Virus record (IMG/VR): IMGVR_UViG_3300046737_000169
Coordinates: 9,765-73,764 of that record
DNA: 64,000 nucleotides
Origin: a virus
Direction: 5' to 3' (one strand)
Numbering within the stretch: position 1 is the first letter of the stretch; each line of letters begins with the position of its first letter. A program made the translations under genes and the position numbers. Of this stretch, positions 6,301 to 58,949 are shown one piece after another. The notes beneath the pieces are model-generated. The model saw only the letters and a program-made list of their open reading frames with translations, was not told the origin of the DNA and did not search any database.

Positions 6301-9300
6301 GCAGGAGGGCGCCAAGATCGTCCGGAACGTCATCTTCGCCAAGGCATACCCTGACATGCGCGCGATCGAGCGCATGGCCGAGACCGAGGACGCCAGCCTC
6401 CTCAACGTGACCAAGGGGATGCTCTTCTCGGCACCCAAGGTTGCCATCTTCCAGGATCTGGTTGACCGCGGCGAGCGCTTCGATCTCGGCATTGGCCAGG
6501 ACATCATCGACGTACTCAACATCCTCGATCAGATCTCGCGCGAGGGCAGCAGCATTCCGGAATGGAAAGCCCAGCAGAGCATGTTCGGGCGCGATCCGTT
6601 CCTGATCCGGCTCCTCGACATCGTCTCGGAGAACACCAGATCGGCCAGGAGAATCTCCGATGTCTTCATAGCCTACGCGGAAGTAGCCGATGCGGCCGGC
6701 TCTCCCAAGCAGGAGACGATGTTCGGCCCGCCGGAGATTCCCGGCAAGTTGGAGATACTGGAGACTGCGCATGAACGGGCAAAAGAGCAATGGGCGGCCA
6801 AGCCTAAACGGCGAGACCCGGCGACCGGCAAACCCATCGAAGAAGGCGGGCCCGAGGAACAGGCGAAACCCGCAAGTGATGGAGTGGCTAAAGGACCGGA
6901 TGAAGACGTACGACCCGAAGTACTTCGGGAAGGACCAGCCAAACCAGGAGCCCCCGGCGCCCAGCAGCCTGGAGGAGTAGAAAAAGGAAAAGGCGTACGC
7001 CGCCGGGATCGGCGGCGAGCTATAGACGCCGATGGCAAGTGGCAGGATGACACCCTCGCCGATATCCCCGGATTGACCGCGCAGGCAACGTTCAAAGAGC
7101 CAGGGGTAAGCGGCGTCGTCTGGGTGAACTACGACGGGATGCGCGTAGTGGAAGCCGCGCTGAACGAGCCGCCGCTGAACGGCATCGCACTTGACGACGT
7201 GGGCGTGGTCGACCTCATGTCGGCGCTGGAAGCGCGCCTCGCCGAAGACGGCCTGTACGAGGAAGAGCGTGCCAAGCTCCAGGAGTTTCACGACCTACTG
7301 AGCAAGCACCGCGAGAAGGTAGGGCCCGGCGCCGGTGTCGAGATCGTCATGGCCGATCCCACGGTGAATGCAGACTTCATTGGGACGGCCCGCGAAGAGA
7401 AGCTGCACGCCGCCCAGCGTCAGGCCAAGCTCTCGGACGAGACCATCGAAGACCTGATGCTTGAGCCGGAGTTCCACGAGGCATGGGGATGGCTTGAGGA
7501 TCACGGCTATCCTGATATTGACGCCAAGGGCGCATTTGAAGAGATCACCGCCAAGGTGCTCGCCGGCCAGGCAATCGGGCTCACCGAGGCCCAACGCATC
7601 AAGGTTGCCAAAGCCTACCGCAATGCGCTGATCGCGGCGCATGGCGCCGAGGCTATCGTTTTATTCCGATACATCAAGTCAGGTGAAGTGAAGGAGACGT
7701 TCCGTGGCAGAGAAGCAAAAGAGGAAGGTGCTGGACGCGCCGCCGGAGTTCAGTCGGAAGGCGGTGTCGAACTTCAACGCGGCCCAACTGGCGGCCGCGA
7801 GGGCGAAGGAGAAGGGGGAGGACGAGGACGCGGCGTTCGAGAAGTCGCTGAAAGCGAGTTGGGCGGAAAGCGCGGGGAGCAAACCAAAATCGAATTAGAG
7901 GAGCAGCCCGACGACCGGGCGATCCTCCAGGGCGAGCGTCTGACCGCAGGCTTCAACGCTCCGCTCACGCCGGAAGAGAAGCGCGCCAAGCTCAAGCCCG
8001 CCAAGGTCGAGCAGACGAGTATGTTCGGCGGCGAGGAAGAGCCCGCCGAGCGCCAGGGCCGGCTGTTCGCCAAGCGCCAGCATGAGTTCGAGGCGCCGGG
8101 GCGCCTGGTCACCTCGAAGACAGCCGAGGAGTTCGGCTCCACCGACATCCTGATGCCCGGCGAGGGCTTCCGTTTCCCCGAGGCGGTGAAGCGGGCCGCC
8201 TCGCTGATCAGGAAGTACCCAGGCTTCCGCGGCAAAGGGCTCGCCAATCCCCAGGCGGTCATCGACGACTTCGTCAAGCAGATCCGCGAGAACCTGGTCT
8301 GGCTCCACGACAAGTACCGGGAGCAGCACGGCGATCTGATCAAGCGCGCCAAGCTCTGGTACGACGGCGGGCGCAAGATCGCCGAAGGCTTCGCCAAGGA
8401 GGCCGGCGTCAAGCCTCACCAGTCCGCCGCGGTCATCGCCGTCCTCTCGCCGAAAAAAGACTGGTTCATGAACGTGGACCTGGCGCGGCGCATTCATCAG
8501 TTCATGGGCATCGCCGACACCGTGAAGTGGTCCGACAAGATGGACGCCGGGTATCGGGCCATGCAGAAATCCAAGGCCAGGAGCGATGCCAGTTCCATCA
8601 AGAAGGCCGCTGCGAAAGGGAAGGTCTTCACTCCCAGCAAGACACTCCCTAACGCCTACCGGCGGATTCGCGGGAAGGCTTTCAGCGAGATCACCAACGC
8701 GCAGGACCGGGCCTACTATCTGCGCATGTGGGACGAGGGCCACAATAGCCGGGACTTCAATGTCCTGACGCCCGAGGGCGAGTCGCGCGGCGTGGCGCGC
8801 AACAAGAAGGACACCGCCAACTCGAAGGTGGTCTGGGCCGGGTACGACGCGATCCGGAAGGCCATGTCGGTTCTCGAGGACGGTTCGGTGGAGAACATCA
8901 GCAAGCGCCTGGGCAACCGGCACAAGGTGCGCTCGTTCTACAACAACATCCTCGATCCCAACTCGAAGAACCTCCACGTCACCATCGACACCCATGCGGT
9001 GTCGGCCGGGCTGCTGCGGCCGCTTGGCGAGAGCGACCCGGAGGTCAAGCACAACCTGGGCGCGCTCTCGGTGGTAACCGGCGAGGCTCCGACCTACGGC
9101 CTGTTCGCCGAAGGCACCAGGGACGCAGCCAAGGACCGCGATCTGATCGCCCGCGAGATGCAGTCGATTACCTGGGAGGCGGTGCGCGGCCTGTTTTCCG
9201 GCGGTTTCAAGAACGACGCCAACAGAAAAACGCTTGCGGCGCTCTGGCGGGACGTTGCGCAAGGTAAAATAACGGCTGATGAAGCGAGAGAGCAAATCTT

Positions 9301-12300
9301 CAAGCTCGCGGGAGGCATTGATCGACCAGCTTGGGCAGATCGACTCCCCGATTTTGGAGGACATGATCGAGGAGGGCGCGCCGCTGACGCGCGCGGAGTA
9401 CCTGGCGAGGGCGTACCCGGAGCAAGACCCGGAGGAGCCGATGGACTCCGAGCTAGAGGCCGAGATGCCGGCGCTGTTCGTACACCCGGACCTAAGGAAA
9501 GATCTCGGCCTGGACGACAGCGAAGCGTAAGAGGCGAGCCGGTCCCCACCGGCAAGACGGTCGAGGCCCAGACCCACGCCGCCACCGGCGGCAGATTCCC
9601 AGACATCATCCGCTTCTCCGATGACCTGAAGAGGGCGATGGATGGCCTCGTCTTCCACAGCGAAAGCAAAGCGGACCGGAAGGCCGGCAAGCTCGCGGCT
9701 GGTTTTAAAACCGGGACGTGGTACATCAACCGGCGCGGGCTGAGCCTGCTCGCCAAATGGACAGGCTCCGACATGGTCGCGGGAAGCTCGTTCCCGGCCA
9801 GTACGGTCCCCCTTCTCATCAAGGTAATCGACGAGGATATTGCGTGGATACAGGCCCGCAAGCCGCTCACCCCGCAGGGCCTCGCGGAGATAACCAGGCT
9901 CCGCGACCGGCTGGAAGCGTGGGAGAAACTCCCGAAGGCGACGCCGGACGAGTCGGTGAACTTCTCCTTCTTTGAGCAGGGCGAAAAACGGCACCCTGCC
10001 ATGCGCGCGACGATCTCCGAGGAGGCGATACATGGCTTCCAGCGCCTGGCGGCACTCAAGGACGCAACCATCGACGCCCTGATGGATACCGACCTGTTCA
10101 AGCGGGCCAAGCAGACGCTCCAGAGGAACGGTTTGTACGCCGGCAAAAACAACCGTTCGGTCCTCATGGAAATCACCGCGAAGATCCTGGCGGCCGATCC
10201 GGATTACGCCCCCCATATTCCCGAGTTGTTCCGCCTGCATATCGTCAAAGCCTACCGGGATGCGATCGTTGCCGAGCACGGCGAGGACGGGATCGTTGTT
10301 TTCCGGTACATCAAAAAAGGCAAGGAGAAGGATGTCTTCCAGGGGCGGATGCAACCGCCCATGCCCACCAGACCCGGTGCGCCTACGACCGGGCCGCGGG
10401 CACCGCCGCCGCCGCCACGGCCGTCTCCAACCGCTCAGCCGGTCTGGACGCCCACGGGCAGGGCGACGCAGGCGCCCTTCGACTTCACCAAGAAAGATCC
10501 TTACGCGGGCACTACGCCCTCGCCCACGGCCAAGCCGAGTACTTCGCCCACGCGCAAGCCGGTGCAGCTTCCGCTGTTCCAGCAACTGAAGAAGGCTGGC
10601 CTGTTCGCCAGGATTGTCGAAGCGGGCAGGCGGGCGGACGAGCGGCTCCGCAAGGCCGGCATCTACTCCGGCGCCACGCTGAGCGCCAACCGGTTCCTCG
10701 ATCCGAAAGTCATCCGCGACATGGCGATCTCGATCGCCGGCTCGGTTGCTCAGGGCGTCATCGATGCGAGGAACTTCACCTCGTCGATCACCGATAAGTT
10801 CGGCAGCGGCGCCCGGCGCGTAGCTCGTCAGGTGTACCGCCGCGCGCAGGGGCAGATGAGGCACGCCGCCTCGACCGGGACGCTGAACGCACGCACGCTC
10901 GGACCCAATGCCGTGCAGGCCGCCTCGATCGGCGTGCCGCCTCCCACGACGGCGGTCGCCACCACCACGCCGCAGCAGCAGGCCGCGGCCGCCCTGGATC
11001 AGCGCGAGAAGGAAATCTGGGAGCGGATGATGCCGGCCACCAAGACCGGCGAAGACAGCCTCCTTGAGAAGGGCAGGAAAGGCTGGCAGAGCTTCAAAGC
11101 CTTCTTCGACCGGCAGTACTTCCACCTGGCTCACGGCGCCAGGTTCGCCGAGCTCCGGCAGCGCCTCAACTTCGTGGCCAAGAGCCAGGGCACGTCCCAG
11201 CACAAAGCGGCCCAGGCCATCATCGATCAACTCGAGAAGCTCGACGAGAAGGAGTACATCCAGTTTTTGAAGGTGGTGGTCTACAACGACATGTGGGCGC
11301 GCGTCATGCAGCAGACCGCCGAGGGCACGCCGGTGCTCGACAAGGATCTGTGGTGGGGCATCAAGGACAAGCACGAGCTAGCCAATGTGCGGGCGAAGGT
11401 GCGCGCCGATGCCAGGGCCAATCCCAAGGTGACCGCCGCGCTCGATATGCGCCAGCAGATGTGGCCCAACATTCGCAAGGAATACATCGCCGCCATGAAG
11501 AAGGCCGGCGTCGACGTATCGAAGAGCATCAAGCGCAAAGACTACTTCCGCCATCGCGTCATGAAGCACCAGGATGCCAAGATGGCGGGCAAGGGCGGCG
11601 GCTCGCGCTTCAAGCTGCCTACCGCGCGCGGCTGGCTGAAGAAGGCCCAGGTCAACATCCACGACTACTCGCTCGACTACATCCGCTCGGAGTTTGAAGT
11701 CCTCAACGAGATGATGTACGACACCGCACGGGCCAAATTTATCGGCTGGCTGAAGGACGAGAGCGGACACAACATCGACAAGCAACTCATGCGCCAGGCG
11801 GCGGCGCACAACAAGGCCGTCATCATGCCGACCTTCGCGCGGATGGCGCGCTACTACAACCGCAAGAACCGCGGCCGCGGCGTCTCGCTGATGACCGCCG
11901 AGTCGATGTACCAGAAGATGATGCGGCTCAAGCCGCGCGATCCAAGCTGGCGTAAGCGCCTCACCATGCGCCTGGCCGGCGCCGAGTATGTGGGGAGCCT
12001 GGAGAAGGCGCTCAATACGTTCGCCAAGGACACCCACGACATCTACCGGGCCAACGATAAGGACCACTTCTACCTGGCGGCCACGATCCCTGACGCGCTG
12101 GCGCGGGCGATCGCCGCCAACGGCACCGGCCAGGTGCTCGACACCCAACTGAAGAAGATCCTGGCCAAGGGCCAGCGCCAGGGGCAGATGGTGCTCCCCA
12201 AGGAAGTGGTCAAGACCCTGCAGGAGTTCATGCAGGGGCCGACGAGCGATGTCGGCAAATTCGTCGACTCCGTTTCCAGGTGGCCTCTCAACAAGTGGAA

Positions 12301-33225: not shown

Positions 33226-33921
33226 ATGAAGAAGATGTTTCTCGCGTCCGCGCTGGCACTGGCCTGCTCGGCGAATCTGGGAGCCACTCTGCTCAGCACG
33301 CTCGTTGCTGGCGGTTCGCTTTCCAATGCCAACATCACCATCGATAACTTCGCGTTCACGCGCACTTGCAGCGGCGTCGGCGTATGCGCGCCCTTGGACG
33401 CCAGCGGTATTGACGTAACGCTGGTAGGCAATCAGATCCGCTTCGCCGGCGGCTTCACCGCCCTTAGCAATGGCGGCTTCGCTACCGCAGATTTCCTCAT
33501 CGCCTACGATCTTCAGTCCACTCTCGCCATTGGCGGCGTGGGTCTGCTGTTTAACGGCGCCGTAGTGGGAGATCAGTCCGCCGCCCAAGTGGTCGAGACC
33601 GTGCTGGCGACCGTGCCCTTCCTGCACGTCGCCGGTCAAGCCCAGGTCAACGCGCCCGGCGGCCCGCTCGCTGATGTGGCTATCCTCGACGCCGCCTACC
33701 AGGATCTGCGGATCGTCAAGGACATCTTCCTCGTGGGCTCCGATACCGAGGGCCTCGGCTACGCGACGATCTCGCTGATCGATCAGTTCTACGCCGGACC
33801 CGGCGTTGACCCGTTCTGCGTCGATGGGACGTGCGACGATGTGCCGGAGCCGGGCACCTACGGCCTGATGGGCTCGGCCCTGATGGGCATCTACCTGATC
33901 CGCCGCCGTAGGGTAAGCTAG
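33226..33921 (+). CDS. PEP-CTERM sorting domain surface protein
   Basis: N-terminal signal peptide; C-terminal VPEPGTYGLMGSALMGIYLIRRRR. Confidence 0.92.
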   Translation: MKKMFLASALALACSANLGATLLSTLVAGGSLSNANITIDNFAFTRTCSGVGVCAPLDASGIDVTLVGNQIRFAGGFTALSNGGFATADFLIAYDLQSTLAIGGVGLLFNGAVVGDQSAAQVVETVLATVPFLHVAGQAQVNAPGGPLADVAILDAAYQDLRIVKDIFLVGSDTEGLGYATISLIDQFYAGPGVDPFCVDGTCDDVPEPGTYGLMGSALMGIYLIRRRRVS

Positions 33922-34009: not shown

Positions 34010-34026
34010 ATTTCGAGGTGAAACAC

Positions 34027-34821
34027 ATGCTCAAAATTTCTGTCCTCGCGACATCGAGCGCCGGCAACGCTACGTTCGTCAGCGATGGAACCACCCGCCT
34101 GTTAGTCGATGCCGGACTCTCGCTCTACGACACCGCCGAGAGGCTCGCCGCGATCGGCGAAGACATCGACCGGATCAACGCCGTGCTCCTGACGCATCCG
34201 CATTCGGACCATGCGTTCGGCCTCACTACGCTCATCAAGCGCTGGCGCCGCGGCGGCGCCTTCGTGCCGGTGTACTGCTCGGCCTCCACATTCGAGGCGC
34301 TCGGCCAGATGATTCCGCCGCACTGGTATCGGCACGTTGCCCAGCACGACGAGTGGAAGGTTGGAGAATTGCACTGCGAGACGTTCGCCGTCGAGCACGA
34401 CACCGGCGAGCCGCTCGGCTTCACCGTCGCCGATACCGGGGGCAGGCGCGCCACGTTCGCGCTCGACCTGGGCAAGATCGACGGCTACCTGGGCGAGTAC
34501 CTCGCCTGTGCGGAAGTGCTGTTCCTCGAGTCCAATCACGATCCGGAGATGCTCGCGGCCGGACCGTACCAGTACAAGCTGAAGCAGCGCATCGCGCAAA
34601 CGCACTTGTCGAATGCAGCCGCCTGTAAATGGATCGAGGAGCACATGACCTCGCGTACGGGTCACTTGCTCCTCGGTCACTTATCGAAAACCACCAACGA
34701 TCCGGAACTGGTGCGCCTGATGGCCATGCGGGCGCTCAACGAGCGCGGCCTGGATTCGGGCGTCGTCGAAGTGATTGCGCCGGGAGAGCCGCCTTCAGGG
34801 CCGCTCGTCATCGACGACTAG
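34027..34821 (+). CDS. MBL-fold metallo-hydrolase (YycJ/WalJ-like)
   Basis: S.S.GN, LLVDAG, THPHSDH, HD, DLG, ESNHD, HLSN, GHLS. Confidence 0.88.
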   Translation: MLKISVLATSSAGNATFVSDGTTRLLVDAGLSLYDTAERLAAIGEDIDRINAVLLTHPHSDHAFGLTTLIKRWRRGGAFVPVYCSASTFEALGQMIPPHWYRHVAQHDEWKVGELHCETFAVEHDTGEPLGFTVADTGGRRATFALDLGKIDGYLGEYLACAEVLFLESNHDPEMLAAGPYQYKLKQRIAQTHLSNAAACKWIEEHMTSRTGHLLLGHLSKTTNDPELVRLMAMRALNERGLDSGVVEVIAPGEPPSGPLVIDD

Positions 34822-35364: not shown

Positions 35365-35420
35365 CTCTCATTGGGGAAATATCCCAGGAGGAGCGCTCGC
35401 AAGCGCCCTCCCTGCGATGC

Positions 35421-35591
35421 TTACCGCATGTTGGCGATCATCTGGTTCACCTTGCCTTGCCGCTTGTCCGGCGGCAGCGCGTCCATGATGTGCTGCGCCA
35501 GCATGAGCACCGCATGGGCCTCCTGCTTCGACATCTCGACCGTGATCTTGTCTGTGGTCTTCTTCAACTGGTCCTCGTTTCCCGCGTCCAT
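35421..35591 (-). CDS. small hypothetical protein (start uncertain)
   Basis: ITVEMSKQEAHAVLML..; codon bias. Confidence 0.45.
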   Translation of the reverse strand: MDAGNEDQLKKTTDKITVEMSKQEAHAVLMLAQHIMDALPPDKRQGKVNQMIANMR

Positions 35592-38124: not shown

Positions 38125-38414
38125 TTCACCTCCTCGAAGCGGATGCGGAACTTCCGCCCGTCCTTCGTTGTGATCTCTTGGCCGTCCTCGAACTCCAGAG
38201 AGTTGATGAACATGAGCGTCCCCGGATGGTCAGGGTCTTCCTCGTCCCCCGGATACTCCAGTCCGTTCACCTCGGCCTCGCGCTCGGCCAGCCGCCGCGC
38301 CGCCCCAAATTCGTCGTCGTCCGGCTCGGCCTCCATGAGTGCGCCACTCAAGCAGTCCTCATCGGCTCCGTACTCGCGCCACTGCAAAATCGTCAATACC
38401 ATTACCGCTTTCAC
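38121..38414 (-). CDS. hypothetical acidic protein
   Basis: Follows a repeat element; D/E-rich. Confidence 0.6.
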   Translation of the reverse strand: MKAVMVLTILQWREYGADEDCLSGALMEAEPDDDEFGAARRLAEREAEVNGLEYPGDEEDPDHPGTLMFINSLEFEDGQEITTKDGRKFRIRFEEVK

Positions 38415-38474
38415 CTCGGGAAGTGTCCCAGGAGTGGCAGCCGCCCGTGCTGCTGCCCTCCCTGCGATGCTTTC

Positions 38475-39047
38475 CTAGACCGTCACCGGCACAAACTTCC
38501 AGTCCTGGCCCAGCGAGTCCTTCATGTCTTCCAGGCACGCATAGTCATCGTCGTCACCGGCCCCCTCCATCGCCACGCGCACCAGACCGTCCGAGAGCCG
38601 GTAGACCTTGAACGCAGTTCCCTCGCCGCTCTCAATCGAGCCCAGGTGCTCACCCGGATACGGCTGCGGCTCGTCGAACACAAGCACCGGCGGGTCTTCC
38701 CACGGCCCCTCGGAATCCCAGTAGTCAACCACCTTGTCAACCTCGGACATGAGCGGCTCAAGCGCCATGTGGTAGTCGTTGATTACGTCGTAGCCGGAGT
38801 TGCCGTAAATCAGGACCACTTCGCCCAGGAGCGCCAGCCGCCCGTCCGCGTCGCGCGTGGCATCCACATACAGGTGGTCGTCGTCGGTCGTCATGAGCGC
38901 GCGCATGATCTCGTTCGCCTTGCGTGATTGCCACAAGACAATCTCTTCGCCGTTGTGGACGCTGATGTTGTGGCCCCTGGCGAGCGCAGTCTGCACAAAC
39001 GTGCCGATCACATGCCGCTCGATAAACTGCCTGATTCTCACTGTCAC
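38475..39047 (-). CDS. hypothetical protein
   Basis: GTG start after GAGGTGAAG; VVLIYGNSGYDVINDY. Confidence 0.65.
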   Translation of the reverse strand: MTVRIRQFIERHVIGTFVQTALARGHNISVHNGEEIVLWQSRKANEIMRALMTTDDDHLYVDATRDADGRLALLGEVVLIYGNSGYDVINDYHMALEPLMSEVDKVVDYWDSEGPWEDPPVLVFDEPQPYPGEHLGSIESGEGTAFKVYRLSDGLVRVAMEGAGDDDDYACLEDMKDSLGQDWKFVPVTV

Positions 39048-39820: not shown

Positions 39821-39882
39821 CGGTTCACCTCGGGGAAAGTATCCCAGGAGGGGCACTCACCTGAGTGCCATCCCTGCGATGC

Positions 39883-41113: not shown

Positions 41114-41189
41114 CGGTTCACCTCGAAAGAATTGGGAGAAGCCCAGGAGGGACGCGAGCCGCCACGCTCGCGCCATCCCTGCGGTGCTC

Positions 41190-41489
41190 TCAAATCGTGC
41201 AGCAGCCGCAGCAGGGCGCGTCTTCGCACCGGCCCGCCTTGTTGCGGGTAAACACCGCGCCACTGCTGAACCGGATCACCGACACTGGCGCGTAAGCATC
41301 CCGCCAGTACGGCGAGCGCTGCCCCTTCTTCGCCCGCGCCCGCCTGGGCGCGCCCGCCTCAACGAGCGCCCGCGCCTCATCGGCCCGCGCATCGGGCACG
41401 CGCCACGCTTTGAGCGCCGCATCCCAGTCGCCGCCCATAGCGCGCAACTCGGCCCGGTGCGGGTACGTGTTTCCCGTAATCATTGCCAT
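41190..41489 (-). CDS. hypothetical protein with C-terminal RCEDAPCCGCC
   Basis: GNTYPHR.EL..MGG.WD...KAW N-terminal domain. Confidence 0.7.
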   Translation of the reverse strand: MAMITGNTYPHRAELRAMGGDWDAALKAWRVPDARADEARALVEAGAPRRARAKKGQRSPYWRDAYAPVSVIRFSSGAVFTRNKAGRCEDAPCCGCCTI

Positions 41490-42338: not shown

Positions 42339-42351
42339 CGCTTCACCTCTT

Positions 42352-42531
42352 CTAGAACAACTTCGGCTGCGGGTCCGATACCGGAGCCGCGAACAAACCG
42401 CCCTGCTCGACGCGAGCGCGCCGCAGCTTGCGGCGCTTCTCTTCCGGCGTCAAGGGACAGTCAAAACCAGCCGTCAACTGCTCGCCCAGGAGGCGCGCTT
42501 GGTCGTCCGGCTGCTCTTCTATCTCGATCAC
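42352..42531 (-). CDS. 59-aa early protein with twin QxxLF motifs, paralog of a segment of the giant virion protein
   Basis: GAGGTGAA RBS then GTG; translates MIEIEEQPDDQARLLGEQLTAGFDCPLTPEEKRRKLRRARVEQGGLFAAPVSDPQPKLF. Confidence 0.85.
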   Translation of the reverse strand: MIEIEEQPDDQARLLGEQLTAGFDCPLTPEEKRRKLRRARVEQGGLFAAPVSDPQPKLF

Positions 42532-42544
42532 GATTCACCTCTCT

Positions 42545-42598
42545 TTGACTATACGCCAGTAACAACGATTTGGTTACTAAATCTTGCGAAATATTTTC
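42545..42598 (-). promoter_or_regulatory. AT-rich probable promoter
   Basis: Minus-strand TATAGT -10; GTAACCAAATCGTTGTTAC imperfect palindrome. Confidence 0.45.
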
Positions 42599-43863: not shown

Positions 43864-43949
43864 AATCTGACCTTTCACCTCGACAAGAATTTCGGGAAGT
43901 CTCCCAGGAGTGGCGCGCGCGATCCGCGCGCCCTCCCTGCGGTACTTTC

Positions 43950-44132
43950 CTATTCGCCCGCCCGCGCCCAGAAGCGCACCGTACCCATGCGGTCCAACCA
44001 CTTGATTTGCGCCCGGTAGGACTCGCCGTCCGCCAGATACGCCGCGACGTTGAACAGGATCGACGCGCCCACCCCAGGCGCAACCGTGTCGATCCGCTGC
44101 AAGATGATCCCGTATGGGCTGAGGCGCGCCAT
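43950..44132 (-). CDS. small hypothetical protein
   Basis: TAATG coupling with the upstream gene. Confidence 0.5.
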   Translation of the reverse strand: MARLSPYGIILQRIDTVAPGVGASILFNVAAYLADGESYRAQIKWLDRMGTVRFWARAGE

Positions 44133-44746
44133 TAGAAGAGCCTCCCTTGATCGCCCGTCTCGACCGGCGCAGCCTGGGCCGCCTCGGCGAGCTTGACCGC
44201 CTCCGCGCCCGCCTTCGAGAGCACCCGCGCCAAGAACCCCTCGATCCGGGGAATCTCTTTGTTGAGGTACGCCACCTTGCGGTCGATATCGTCCTGGCAC
44301 CGCTTGACCCAGACCGCGCCGCCCTCGCCGCGCCGGTCCAAGCTGCGCTCATGGTCGCCGTTGCGCTCCACGTCGTACACCGGATGAAACAGCCAACTGG
44401 ACTCGGTGAAAATATCCTTCCCGCCCGCGTCCGCGATGAAATAGAGCCCGCTCCCGAAATACTCGCGCCCGCGCGGCATGGCCTCCACCGGCCCGGTGAG
44501 AATCTCCAGGTAGTTCCGGTATTTCACCAGCAACTTCGCATTCTTGCGGTAGAGCGTGCCGAGCGTGGGCGTCGCCTGGAGTATCCGGTCGATACAATCG
44601 AGCCCGTACTGCTGAACCAAGCCGTCCTTGTACGTCACGCGCGCCACATGCTTAATGCCCTGGCTGCACCGGTCGCAGCACTGAACCGGGGACGCCGTGT
44701 AGTAGTACACCGAGCGCACCGCCGTCGTTCCTAAAATCTGAGTCAT
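44132..44746 (-). CDS. hypothetical Zn-binding protein ending in QGRLF
   Basis: CDRC..IKH..G.DC; C-terminal QxxLF. Confidence 0.7.
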   Translation of the reverse strand: MTQILGTTAVRSVYYYTASPVQCCDRCSQGIKHVARVTYKDGLVQQYGLDCIDRILQATPTLGTLYRKNAKLLVKYRNYLEILTGPVEAMPRGREYFGSGLYFIADAGGKDIFTESSWLFHPVYDVERNGDHERSLDRRGEGGAVWVKRCQDDIDRKVAYLNKEIPRIEGFLARVLSKAGAEAVKLAEAAQAAPVETGDQGRLF

Positions 44747-44827
44747 AATTCCTTCCTCACCTCGAGTTTTCGGGAAGTCTCCCAGGAGGGAGGCGCGCCC
44801 ACTCGCCGCGCCCCATCCCTGCGGTAC

Positions 44828-45070
44828 TTACCGGATGCCCGCGAGCCGCTCGGCGATTTCGCGCTCGCGCTCGGCGAGCACTTCCTTGGCCCGCACAACC
44901 TGCTCAGCCGCTACCCATACCTGCACGCGCGGGGGAGGCAAACGCTTGTCCCTCCACTTGGGATGCTCCATCCGCGAATAGATCCCCGCTGCAATCAGCG
45001 AATCGAGCAGGCCCGCCGCCCGCATCCCCGTCGCCGTCTCGGCAATCAACGTCATCGTCGCCTGCGCCAT
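44828..45070 (-). CDS. DUF2007-like small protein
   Basis: L.AAGI..VQVWV...V.RAKEVL. Confidence 0.55.
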   Translation of the reverse strand: MAQATMTLIAETATGMRAAGLLDSLIAAGIYSRMEHPKWRDKRLPPPRVQVWVAAEQVVRAKEVLAEREREIAERLAGIR

Positions 45071-56305: not shown

Positions 56306-56691
56306 TGGAAGAGTACGAGGGCCGGCCCATCGCGCGCCGCGGCTCGCCGCTCACGCGCTACAACACACCGCTCTCCTGGGATGAGGAGCTTCGCTTCCAG
56401 AAGCACAAGGAAGTCCACTCGCCGCGCGATTCCGGCGAGGACTACGACGAGCGCGGCGCCTGGCTCGCCGGCCAGAAGTCCGACCAGACCAAGGGCGAGC
56501 ACGGCAACGACCTCTGGAAGAAGCCCAACCATCCGACGCAGTCCGACGAGAGCCTCTACGCGGGCTACGGGCCTGCCGGCAAGTGGCTTAGTAAAGGCGG
56601 CTACGTGCCGCACGGCGGCTTACTCAAAGCCAAGCTCACCGACGAAATCGCCGAAGCCACCAAGTACCCGCTGCCCAAGAAGAAACCATGA
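56305..56691 (+). CDS. conserved phage hypothetical protein
   Basis: YNT.L..EE..DYD.RG.W..H.ND.WKKPNHPT.S.ES.Y. Confidence 0.65.
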   Translation: MEEYEGRPIARRGSPLTRYNTPLSWDEELRFQKHKEVHSPRDSGEDYDERGAWLAGQKSDQTKGEHGNDLWKKPNHPTQSDESLYAGYGPAGKWLSKGGYVPHGGLLKAKLTDEIAEATKYPLPKKKP

Positions 56692-58949
56692 TTGCCGATA
56701 CCGATTCAAAGACCGTCGTAACGCCCGCAGACTTCGTCACAGTCCACTCGCAAGCGCTCGGCAAGTGGATCTTGGAAGATCTCGACCGGCCGCTCTCGGC
56801 GGCGCGCACCGCGCAACTCCTGCGTGCCAAAAGAGCCCTGTTTTATTGGGAGGGCAAGCAGTATGGCCATCTCAAATGGGACTCGCACACCGGCTCGTTC
56901 GATTGGGTGCCGATGGATTTCAAGGAAGAGACCCAGCGCGTTTTCTCGAACGTCTATAACATCATTTACTCGGACGGCCAGAAGTTCAATTCGCTGGTAG
57001 GCCAGCGGCGCCTGAATCAAAAAGCGGTCGCCGACGACGCGCAGAATTTCACCCAGACGCAAGTCGCCTCGAAGGCGAACACGATGGCGCGGCATCTGCT
57101 CAGGTACTGGAAACTGCAGCGCCGCGCCCCGAATGAAATTGCCGAAGTCGTCTGGAATACCGGCCCGGTCTACGGCTTCGTCGATCACGTCGTCGACGGC
57201 CGCCGGCACGGCTTCCACCAAGAGCCCATCTATGCGGTCGAACAGGTGCAGGGACTCGGCGAACAGGTCTGCAACTACTGCGGCGGCAAGAACCAGGAAG
57301 GGAGCCCGCAGTGCCAGAACTGCGGCGCGCCGCTCGATCCGGCCACCTCGCCCGTCGTGCCCGGCCCCATGATGGATCAGACCGTCGAAGTGGGTGAGCA
57401 GTCCTACGCCAAGGGAATGCCCGAGCTCCAGTTGCTCTCCTGCATCCAGGTCATGACGCCCTATGAGGCCAAGTGGATCGACGACGACTGCGAGTGGCTC
57501 GACTACTCGTTCCCGCTGAGTAAGCAGAAGGCCAAGCTCGTCCTGCAGCGGCTGAACGCGGCCAAGAAGGACATAACGCCGATCAACGACTGGGACTCGG
57601 ACGAGAACGTGGCCGAGGCCGCGCGCATCCTCGAGGAGATTCAAAACCCCAACGACCGCATCATCGATCGCGTGCAGGAAACGGTGTCGTACGGAAGAAG
57701 GTGGTTGAACCCGAAAGCCTACGACGGGATGCCGCGCGACATGCGCCGCGCCGCCGGGAAGATCTTCGAGGACGGCGTATTGATCCACCGCATGGGCGGC
57801 CGGCCGGTCATGGCCGAAGCGGCGAAGATGACCGAGCACTGGTCAGTATGTAAAACGGGAACCAACGCCTATATCAACGGGCCTGGCTTAGTGCAGAACA
57901 TCATTGGGCAGCAGGACAGTATCAACAATTTTTGGAATATGGCCGATGAGATCGTGATGAGGGGAATCCCGAAACACATCGTCGACTCGCAGATCCTGAA
58001 TCCCGAGACGGTCAAGAAATCCGGCAGCGTGGGCGAACTGCTGTTCACCAGGACGGGCGGCGTCGATCTCAGTAAGGCATTCGTCACGATCCCCACCGCG
58101 CAACTCCATCAAGGGCTGATGCCGGTCGCCGAGATGATGCGCCAGTACACGCGCGAGGCCGACAACATTCAGCCGGCGCTTTTCGGGGGCGGCGATCCCG
58201 CGCCCACCTGGCGCCAGGATCAGCAACAAAAAGCCGGCGCGTTGCAAGGACTGCAGTTGCCGTTCGAGTCGATGCAAAACTTCGTTAGCGACATTTTAGA
58301 AGACGGCATCCGGCTCGGCGCGCGGTTCGGTGTCGGTTCGGTGTCGGTTCCCTCGACCGGGTTCGGTGAGATCGGCGAGACTGTCGACCTCGAAGAGCTC
58401 GAAGAGATCGGCTGGCATATCGAAGCCGCGGACACCGCGCCCCAGTCGTTCGGCGAGAAGGTCACCAAGCTATCGGGCCTCTCGCAGGAGGCGCCGCAAC
58501 TGGCGCAATCGATCGGCCTGGGACACCCGATCAACGCGCAGCAGACCAAGGCGTATTTCGGGGTCGACGACTTCTATGCCCCCGGCGAGTTCATGTACAC
58601 GATGGTCATGAACCGCATCCAGAAACTGTTGTCCGAGCCCACAATTCCGCCCGCGCTCGATCCACTGACGCAGATGCCGGCGGTCGATCCGATGACCGGA
58701 ATGCCGGCGGTCGAAACCAGTTCGGTCCCGGTCGATCCCTTCCTCGATCAGGACCACACAACGATCGCGATGATCATCCGCGAATGGTGCATGTCACCGG
58801 CCGGCCAGCAGGCCGAGCAGGACCAGTCGCAGTTCTTCGCGAACGTGAAGTTGCACGGCCAGGAACAGGACCAGGCCGCGCAGGCCGCGGCGATGGCAAT
58901 GGCGCCCGCGCCCGAAGAACCTGCGCCCGCCGCCGCGCCACCGGCGTAA
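56688..58949 (+). CDS. portal protein with a zinc-ribbon insertion
   Basis: 753 aa between terL and scaffold; podoviral-portal-like layout; CNYC..CQNC insert. Confidence 0.75.
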   Translation: MIADTDSKTVVTPADFVTVHSQALGKWILEDLDRPLSAARTAQLLRAKRALFYWEGKQYGHLKWDSHTGSFDWVPMDFKEETQRVFSNVYNIIYSDGQKFNSLVGQRRLNQKAVADDAQNFTQTQVASKANTMARHLLRYWKLQRRAPNEIAEVVWNTGPVYGFVDHVVDGRRHGFHQEPIYAVEQVQGLGEQVCNYCGGKNQEGSPQCQNCGAPLDPATSPVVPGPMMDQTVEVGEQSYAKGMPELQLLSCIQVMTPYEAKWIDDDCEWLDYSFPLSKQKAKLVLQRLNAAKKDITPINDWDSDENVAEAARILEEIQNPNDRIIDRVQETVSYGRRWLNPKAYDGMPRDMRRAAGKIFEDGVLIHRMGGRPVMAEAAKMTEHWSVCKTGTNAYINGPGLVQNIIGQQDSINNFWNMADEIVMRGIPKHIVDSQILNPETVKKSGSVGELLFTRTGGVDLSKAFVTIPTAQLHQGLMPVAEMMRQYTREADNIQPALFGGGDPAPTWRQDQQQKAGALQGLQLPFESMQNFVSDILEDGIRLGARFGVGSVSVPSTGFGEIGETVDLEELEEIGWHIEAADTAPQSFGEKVTKLSGLSQEAPQLAQSIGLGHPINAQQTKAYFGVDDFYAPGEFMYTMVMNRIQKLLSEPTIPPALDPLTQMPAVDPMTGMPAVETSSVPVDPFLDQDHTTIAMIIREWCMSPAGQQAEQDQSQFFANVKLHGQEQDQAAQAAAMAMAPAPEEPAPAAAPPA

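Follow-up and report, generated by a model that had tools for sequence, protein, structure and literature searches.

Why does a phage encode, as a free-standing gene for 59 amino acids, a segment that it also carries inside a protein of 3546 residues, and what could this segment do in both places? The question is raised by a reading frame in a window of 64,000 nucleotides, bases 9765-73764 of a complete 73.8-kb IMG/VR record (63% GC) from soil metagenomes. The phage encodes an integrase, a large terminase, a candidate major head protein and a collagen-like tail fibre. The frame, P0002, lies within a block of small minus-strand genes (34.8-45.4 kb) headed by a divergent gap, rich in AT, at about 45.4 kb. 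Table 1 lists the features of the locus.

Table 1. Features of the two module copies and of their surroundings, in positions of the window.
Feature	Position	Strand	Remarks
3546-aa polyvalent protein P0001	3368..14008	+	within structural gene block
Domain X copy 1 (EEKLHAAQ motif)	6968..7807	+	ahead of module
Embedded module copy	7889..8068	+	giant residues 1508-1567
Embedded motif 1, QTSMF	8012..8026	+	QQDLF in G001 orthologue
Embedded motif 2, QGRLF	8054..8068	+	QGTLF in G001 orthologue
Domain X copy 2 (EEAIHGFQ motif)	9590..10372	+	followed by QLPLF..AGLF
QLPLF	10565..10579	+	~180 residues past second domain X; QMTLF in orthologue
Copies of GGGAAGTCTCCCAGGAG ... CCCTCCCTGCGGTACTTTCC element	35370-35430, 38414-38480, 39830-39860, 41149-41194, 43890-43952, 44768-44832		
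Cassette absent or replaced in other metagenomes	42341..42531	-	
AGAGGTGAA copy	42342-42350		before gene next to 59-aa ORF; repeat family D3
59-aa gene P0002	42352..42531	-	GTG start, TAG stop
Motif 2, QPKLF	42355..42369	-	last five residues of 59-aa protein, free carboxyl end
Motif 1, QGGLF	42391..42405	-	residues 43-47 of 59-aa protein
Conserved module core	42424..42510	-	residues 8-36 of 59-aa protein; helices LLGEQLTAGF, then PLTPEEKRRKL
AT-rich gap (35% GC)	42532..42596	-	inverted repeat AGTAAC-N9-GTTACT and TATAGT
Shine-Dalgarno GAGAGGTGA	42535..42543	-	3 nt 5' of GTG of 59-aa gene
204-aa early-region protein	44132..44746	-	disordered C-terminal tail ending QGRLF (44135-44149)

Two copies of one module in a soil phage

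The giant protein P0001 carries a ddrB-ParB domain (residues 771-897, E 1.5e-25) and DUF7178 (residues 1648-1714), and its gene sits between head genes and a downstream tail fibre gene. With multiple unrelated domains, a DdrB-like ParB domain and virion genes as neighbours, it has the characteristics of a polyvalent protein, and the position of the gene suggests a virion protein. BLASTP aligns the 59-aa protein to giant residues 1508-1555 without gaps (32/48 identities, E 1e-18). In a MAFFT alignment of the full 59-aa sequence with the embedded copy, the identity is 59%, with one indel of two residues and both Q..LF motifs aligned. These pairwise alignments bear out the relation between the 59-aa gene and the giant-gene segment 7889-8068 that an earlier note on this DNA had described. 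Searched in all six frames, the complete record contains the module in these two places and nowhere else.

At the DNA level the module cores of the two copies are approximately 75% identical. Within the ungapped 42-codon core, dN/dS is 0.38 at a dS of 0.67, and the pair is thus no chance match but an old paralogue under purifying selection. The nearest relative of the phage is G001, a syntenic phage of 73.2 kb with about 72% nucleotide identity over the structural genes. The 59-aa gene agrees with its own giant gene in 29/42 positions and with that of this relative in 28/42; these nearly equal distances mean either an old duplication or a donor from another phage.

The small frame itself shows a GC content of 0.72/0.42/0.80 at the three codon positions, which is the pattern of real genes in this genome. 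The sequence GAGAGGTGA in front of it is the ribosome-binding sequence common to the neighbour genes, and an identical 59-aa protein is present on a second contig (Logan). Reading frame, Shine-Dalgarno sequence and codon bias all support the gene that had been proposed here, and judged from its sequence the predicted frame is confirmed as a real gene and a selected copy of the giant-protein segment. It could instead be argued that the frame is a non-functional leftover, i.e., a piece of a giant gene that ended up as a copy in the early region, as it is missing in the nearest relative as well as in a near-identical variant, and module-bearing fragments of giant genes do exist in Acidobacteriota MAGs and metagenome contigs. 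We regard this as highly improbable: the frame is coextensive with the module, opening at its first conserved position and closing with the last LF, its start codon is its own and its Shine-Dalgarno sequence resembles those of the neighbours, the codon bias is gene-like, and all conserved family residues are kept under the purifying selection estimated above. Moreover, other free-standing versions (67-76 aa) exist, one of which ends at the second motif.

The frame is the first gene past an internal gap of 65 nt, the third most AT-rich stretch between 28 and 53 kb. The gap was earlier described as an AT-rich, promoter-like region. Its base composition agrees with this description, whereas a scan of the gap with the sigma-70 consensus finds no promoter match, so that the term "early" for the gene is read from its position. 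An internal promoter or operator is possible. Between other minus-strand genes of the early region, an intergenic element, GGGAAGTCTCCCAGGAG ... CCCTCCCTGCGGTACTTTCC (plus strand), is repeated (Table 1); the gap before the 59-aa gene is without this element and AT-rich instead.

Several alleles of the locus were found on metagenome contigs. The X2 contigs cover the 59-aa gene, which is unchanged. The X5 contig (200 nt, from another soil metagenome) has flanks of about 98% identity and joins 42340 to 42532, and it thus lacks the frame together with one of the two AGAGGTGAA repeats; the next gene then follows the same AT-rich gap. The X3 contig, from a sediment metagenome, keeps the upstream gene and the gap and diverges at 42531 into a different frame starting MTKKVQ. 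Since these alleles are represented by single low-depth contigs, the evidence is moderate; it fits an accessory cassette that can be present, absent or replaced. With regard to moron-like traits, the gene is polymorphic on these single low-depth contigs and has an AT-rich gap upstream, but the gap persists in the gene-less allele and no terminator follows the 59-aa gene. In G001 and in four other complete phages the module occurs only inside the giant protein. The double supply of a free and an embedded copy is hence specific to this phage, and the view that the module is supplied twice does not hold as a general, conserved design.

The module family and its clamp-type motifs

The 59-aa sequence by itself reveals few relatives. 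Searches for near-identical DNA and tblastn against a GenBank phage collection give no match, a word-based protein search returns the query only, and single-sequence pattern scans of viral contigs find nothing. Neither Pfam nor PHROGs holds a family for it at an E-value of 0.01 or better; a PDB profile search with the module gives only a chance match (E 2.6), and the ESM Atlas gives no usable match. With a profile built from both copies, the module was detected in 28 out of 1.8 billion representative proteins at an E-value of 0.001 or better. About 20 of these have 1000-4000 residues, four have 59-76, and a few are of medium size and probably represent fragments. The small homologues besides ours are P0006, P0017 and P0024 (67-76 aa), free-standing genes on contigs of 0.9-4 kb, and P0017 (68 aa) stops exactly at its own second motif. 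The module was found on seven viral contigs, always inside proteins of 2000-3700 residues. Among 22 module-bearing giants, a DdrB-like ParB domain is present in 10. A metagenome scan with the alignment A7 returned only fragments or giant genes, and one with the alignment A1 had no match.

The family consensus reads D-R-x-x-L-x-G-E-R-L-T-A-(Q/G)-F-x-x-P-L-T-x-E-E-x-x-x-K-L-K-R and is followed by the motifs: motif 1, Q-x-x-L-F, lies 25-26 residues past the RLTA core and motif 2, Q-G-x-L-F, at +36 to +39, with a spacer of 7-9 Pro/Glu-rich residues between them. Most members carry an additional x-x-S-L-F exactly 27 residues ahead of the core, which is absent in the subgroup of this phage. The best conserved part are the helices (L14, G16, E17, R18, L19, T20, A21, F23, P26..E31 and L36 in the numbering of the 59-aa protein). 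L19, A21 and Q43 are invariant across the 32 aligned sequences. Motif 1 has Gln in 32/32 and Phe (F47) in 31/32 sequences, motif 2 has Gln (Q55) in 29/32 and Phe (F59) in 26/32; position 4 of both is L, M or F and the inner positions vary. A lack of motif conservation among homologs, which the earlier note had named as grounds for giving up its idea, is therefore not what the family alignment gives. The 59-aa protein retains every conserved residue of the family. Motifs of homologues include QTDLF, QSDMF and QGSLF, and their flanks are rich in E, D, G and P throughout the family. In the G001 orthologue of the giant protein all three sites retain the motif with changed inner residues (QTSMF/QQDLF, QGRLF/QGTLF and QLPLF/QMTLF).

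The motifs are also more frequent than expected. The pattern Q..[LMF]F occurs 66 times in the 22 giants compared with 8.3 times in shuffled sequences, and 10 times in the proteome of this phage, where 2.2 +/- 1.5 are expected. Two of the 78 predicted proteins terminate in the motif (0.009 expected, P about 4e-5).

Two further observations concern such peptides. An unassigned 753-aa protein encoded between terminase and head genes (56688-58949, plus strand) contains QPALFGGGD at residue 495, which is kept in its G001 orthologue. The terminase of G001 begins with MSGQFSLF; that of our phage does not.

For the 59-aa protein, AlphaFold2 predicts helices at residues 8-23 and 29-35 with low confidence (pLDDT 60-70) and no secondary structure past residue 35, which places both motifs outside the helices. 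Clamp-binding motifs follow the rule Q-phi-x-[L/M]-[F/L], with the Gln and the final L-F as main determinants. Position 2 tolerates substitution at the cost of affinity, and even a bare LF can bind. Binding is improved by acidic flanks or by a free carboxylate at the C-terminus, and avidity increases where several motifs are present (PMC11139829). Among the proven variants, QADMF of Pol III alpha and QTSMAF of epsilon have a non-aliphatic residue at position 2, the latter binding the clamp with a KD of ~210 uM (PMC11139829). Phage Mu MuC, with QHDLF and QPDLF, and the Mor/C family, with the consensus Qx[D/E][L/M]F, bind DnaN (PMC12867686).

Measured against this rule, QGGLF, QPKLF, QTSMF and QGRLF all have Gln at position 1, L or M at position 4 and F at position 5. 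They lie in predicted disorder or at a terminus, next to acidic residues or a free carboxylate, motif 2 being the C-terminus of the 59-aa protein itself. An aliphatic residue at position 2 is missing: motif 1 has T, G, Q, S or P there and motif 2 mostly G. The earlier assignment of these motifs to the clamp type is in good agreement with the published motif and with the validated phage and polymerase variants. The N-terminal domain of DnaN (Pfam PF00712) has no match in the complete 73.8-kb record, so that a clamp partner would be that of the host; a Pfam scan of the 22 module-bearing giants likewise gave no match to DnaN families.

The likeness to clamp motifs could be convergent, with the module docking on another hub such as a recombination or repair factor, the pocket of a protease or chaperone, or a ParB- or SMC-like protein of the phage. 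In favour of this are the helices, which are better conserved than the inner motif residues, the non-aliphatic position 2 and the fixed motif spacing, and an SMC-like ATPase and a ParB-N protein are among the products of the window. Also, no match to a family or structure (Pfam, PHROG, PDB, ESM Atlas) restricts the choice of partner. On the other hand, the invariant Gln, the acidic flanks and the preference for the C-terminus are hallmarks of clamp motifs. The module furthermore occurs in phages of very different gene content (records of 45-74 kb), which favours a universally conserved host partner. We know of no other hub that is bound through Q-x-x-L-F peptides combining these three hallmarks. 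Altogether we consider docking on a different hub somewhat unlikely.

Information on the hosts comes from two bacterial MAGs. In an Acidobacteriaceae MAG chromosome (L020, 4749-5474) a 241-aa frame with the module lies among genes for ABC-type permeases and PadR, and a Bryobacteraceae MAG (L021) holds a module-bearing frame of 196 aa. Both appear to be what is left of giant genes of prophages, and this hints at Acidobacteriota as hosts of the phage group carrying the module. Within the early region of our phage there is a plus-strand island encoding a PEP-CTERM-tagged protein and a protein of metallo-beta-lactamase fold (33226-33921, 34018-34821); the tag points to a host with an exosortase.

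Domain X, terminal peptides and a grafted tail

In the giant proteins the module is accompanied by a domain of about 250 residues, here called domain X, with the signature (H/E)ExxHxxQ and a C-terminal pattern ..AYRxAL..HG..AIVxFRYxK.G. It lies 165-205 residues ahead of the module in 14/22 giants. Our giant protein has a second copy, and QLPLF..AGLF follows it at the same distance at which the module follows the first. Most copies of the domain read EExxH and three read HExxH. We found no relative in Pfam or the PDB and no match to a peptidase family.

This arrangement allows for a different interpretation, in which the module is a signal for processing or assembly, i.e., the site of a phage peptidase (domain X or the prohead protease) or a capsid-loading tag, and the free 59-aa protein acts as decoy substrate, regulator or cargo peptide. 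The location at a domain joint behind the (H/E)ExxHxxQ domain would suit a cleavage site, and processing ahead of packaging, probably by the protein's own metallopeptidase domain, is described for polyvalent proteins like DdrB of phage P1 (PMC5512222). Three LF peptides at fixed spacing would suit a structured recognition site as well, and small proteins that stop exactly at LF resemble a cleavage product. However, domain X is mostly EExxH and lacks a peptidase match in Pfam and the PDB, and the free gene carries no cargo and is located among small non-structural genes far from the head genes.

The giants also possess another candidate for a packaging signal, which argues against such a role of the module. 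Module-bearing giants start with tandem short aromatic peptides: NPFAKYGG twice in our phage (3377-3451, residues 4-28), LGFKP twice in G001 and pairs of the PPGFxLE type elsewhere, P0009, P0016, P0025, P0027 and P0028 being further giants with such peptides. Judged by their sequence, these may be a signal that addresses the proteins to capsid or portal.

The same type of tail also occurs on a 204-aa protein of the early region. Its C-terminus, ..AAPVETGDQGRLF, follows the last helix and is modelled by AlphaFold2 with lower confidence. The protein belongs to a family of 25 members, and its 24 homologues all end approximately 20 residues earlier, without the QGRLF tail. Since the tail is lacking in all homologues of this protein, it is hard to explain as a tag for head cargo. 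The cargo-free copy, the tail of the 204-aa protein, the end of P0017 and the separate N-terminal signal together favour docking to a host partner over a head-cargo tag, and we hold both the processing signal and the matching roles of the free protein to be unlikely.

The remainder of the 204-aa protein has no match in Pfam or PHROGs. It is predicted as an N-terminal Cys-rich beta unit (CxxC...C) followed by a long helical hairpin (AlphaFold2 pLDDT 92), for which Foldseek finds nothing significant and VIA-align only generic helical matches below Z 7. The QGRLF tail of this gene has no similarity at the DNA level to either copy of the module and is thus not detectable as a further copy.

The idea that giant proteins and early genes exchange such modules, put forward in the earlier note, gains from the small versions P0006, P0017 and P0024, from the allele polymorphism and from the tail of the otherwise unrelated 204-aa protein.

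Proposed docking to the host clamp and related systems

The reading we prefer, with a probability of roughly 0.5, is that both copies are clamp-docking modules: the embedded copy would tether enzyme domains to DnaN and the free copy would compete for the pockets of the clamp. The module would thereby be a portable docking unit of about 60 residues, composed of a two-helix core and two clamp-type motifs Q-x-x-(L/M)-F. In the giant protein it would be placed in a flexible joint past the (H/E)ExxH domain and would hold the delivered ParB-like and other DNA-acting domains at host DnaN rings on DNA. The 59-aa peptide has no enzyme domain and would be made from the leftward operon just past the AT-rich gap. 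Occupying the clamp pockets as a competitor, it could block the access of host polymerases, Hda or repair proteins to the clamp, or it could drive out the injected giant protein as soon as expression of phage genes has begun. Such competition has a precedent in MuC, a small two-motif phage protein which sequesters the clamp and derails the control of host replication, and whose overproduction is lethal (PMC12867686).

It was originally proposed that the two motifs might occupy both pockets of the dimeric clamp. In the E. coli beta ring the pockets are about 50-60 Å apart. F47 and Q55 are separated by seven residues, which reach no further than about 30 Å, so that one peptide is unlikely to fill both, and we rejected the bridging of the ring by the twin motifs on this inferred distance. 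For two weak, closely spaced motifs, a gain in apparent affinity through rebinding (avidity or allovalency) is more plausible.

Several facts count against docking to the clamp. The helices would be idle in a model based purely on clamp motifs, and the fixed motif spacing suggests a composite surface, whose partner need not be DnaN. Position 2 is G, P, T or Q, and motifs like that of epsilon, the closest natural counterpart, are weak. The position of the module past the (H/E)ExxH domain in 14/22 giants fits a processing site as well, and the free copy is dispensable, since both the nearest relative and a near-identical variant do without it.

A bolder version, which we find quite doubtful as a whole, sees in the 59-aa peptide a purpose-made decoy of the module of injected polyvalent proteins, which would compete for their site on the host clamp. 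Made early or from a prophage, it might act as a timer that frees the phage's own giant enzyme from host DNA, or it might exclude superinfecting phages by barring their giant proteins from docking. The module would then be a new composite ligand lying across the face of the ring, in which the helix pair joins with LF anchors, two or three in number, whose spacing is fixed.

Polyvalent proteins are believed to enter the cell along with the phage DNA in order to disarm the host. If the module is a clamp dock, their enzyme domains would find DNA targets by riding on DnaN, and the natural 59-residue version without an enzyme would be a minimal reagent for testing the clamp hypothesis of polyvalent proteins. 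The same protein would also be a candidate natural competitor for the clamp pocket, which is an antibiotic target. The alleles and the grafted tail show motifs being exchanged between genes of the virion and of the early region. Should the partner be something other than the clamp, the module is nonetheless an undescribed family, widespread in soil phages, and its partner could be identified with the help of the small soluble member.

That phage proteins can carry clamp motifs is already known from MuC. New, as far as the predicted proteins tell, are the module of 60-85 residues with its helices and fixed motif spacing and its free-standing forms in small genes; new as well are the polymorphism of the cassette, the tail graft on the 204-aa protein and a genome that holds the module both free and embedded. 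To our knowledge, no clamp client has the two-helix element of the module.

The known clamp clients (Dalrymple QL[S/D]LF; Pol II, Pol III alpha/epsilon, Pol IV, UmuC and Hda) served as comparison set. With these the module shares the Gln, L or M followed by F, a small or acidic position 3, the disordered context with acidic flanks or a free carboxylate, and the presence of more than one motif. It differs from them in G, P, T or Q at position 2 and in motifs that keep a fixed spacing to a conserved two-helix element. The polyvalent proteins (Iyer, Burroughs, Anand, de Souza, Aravind 2017; PMC5512222) are like our giant in multidomain composition, the DdrB-like ParB domain and the location among virion genes, but the paper mentions neither clamp, DnaN or linker motif nor such a module or a free-standing copy.

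The small phage protein Gp168 of Twort, which halts host replication through DnaN, is comparable insofar as the 59-aa protein, in the reading proposed here, is also aimed at DnaN (PMC8565349). The comparison is by description only, and Gp168 binds the DNA channel of the clamp and not the pocket of the partners (PMC8565349). In fission yeast, Spd1 is described as a short disordered protein with tandem PCNA-binding motifs that acts by competition (cited in PMC11139829). As a eukaryotic protein with PCNA as its target and a sequence unrelated to that of the 59-aa protein, it provides an analogy only.

A parallel in function is again MuC with its relatives. In Pfam and PHROG searches (E 0.01 or better) the 59-aa protein, with its two short helices, gives no match to the Mor/C DNA-binding fold, it shows no DNA-binding domain that could be recognised, and the likeness is functional only. 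MuC is a folded DNA-binding transcription factor with motifs about 130 residues apart, whereas those of the 59-aa protein are separated by 7 residues. In both cases, however, a small phage protein carries two clamp-type motifs that differ from the consensus, in MuC only at position 2 (QHDLF and QPDLF; PMC12867686), and one of them lies near the C-terminus.
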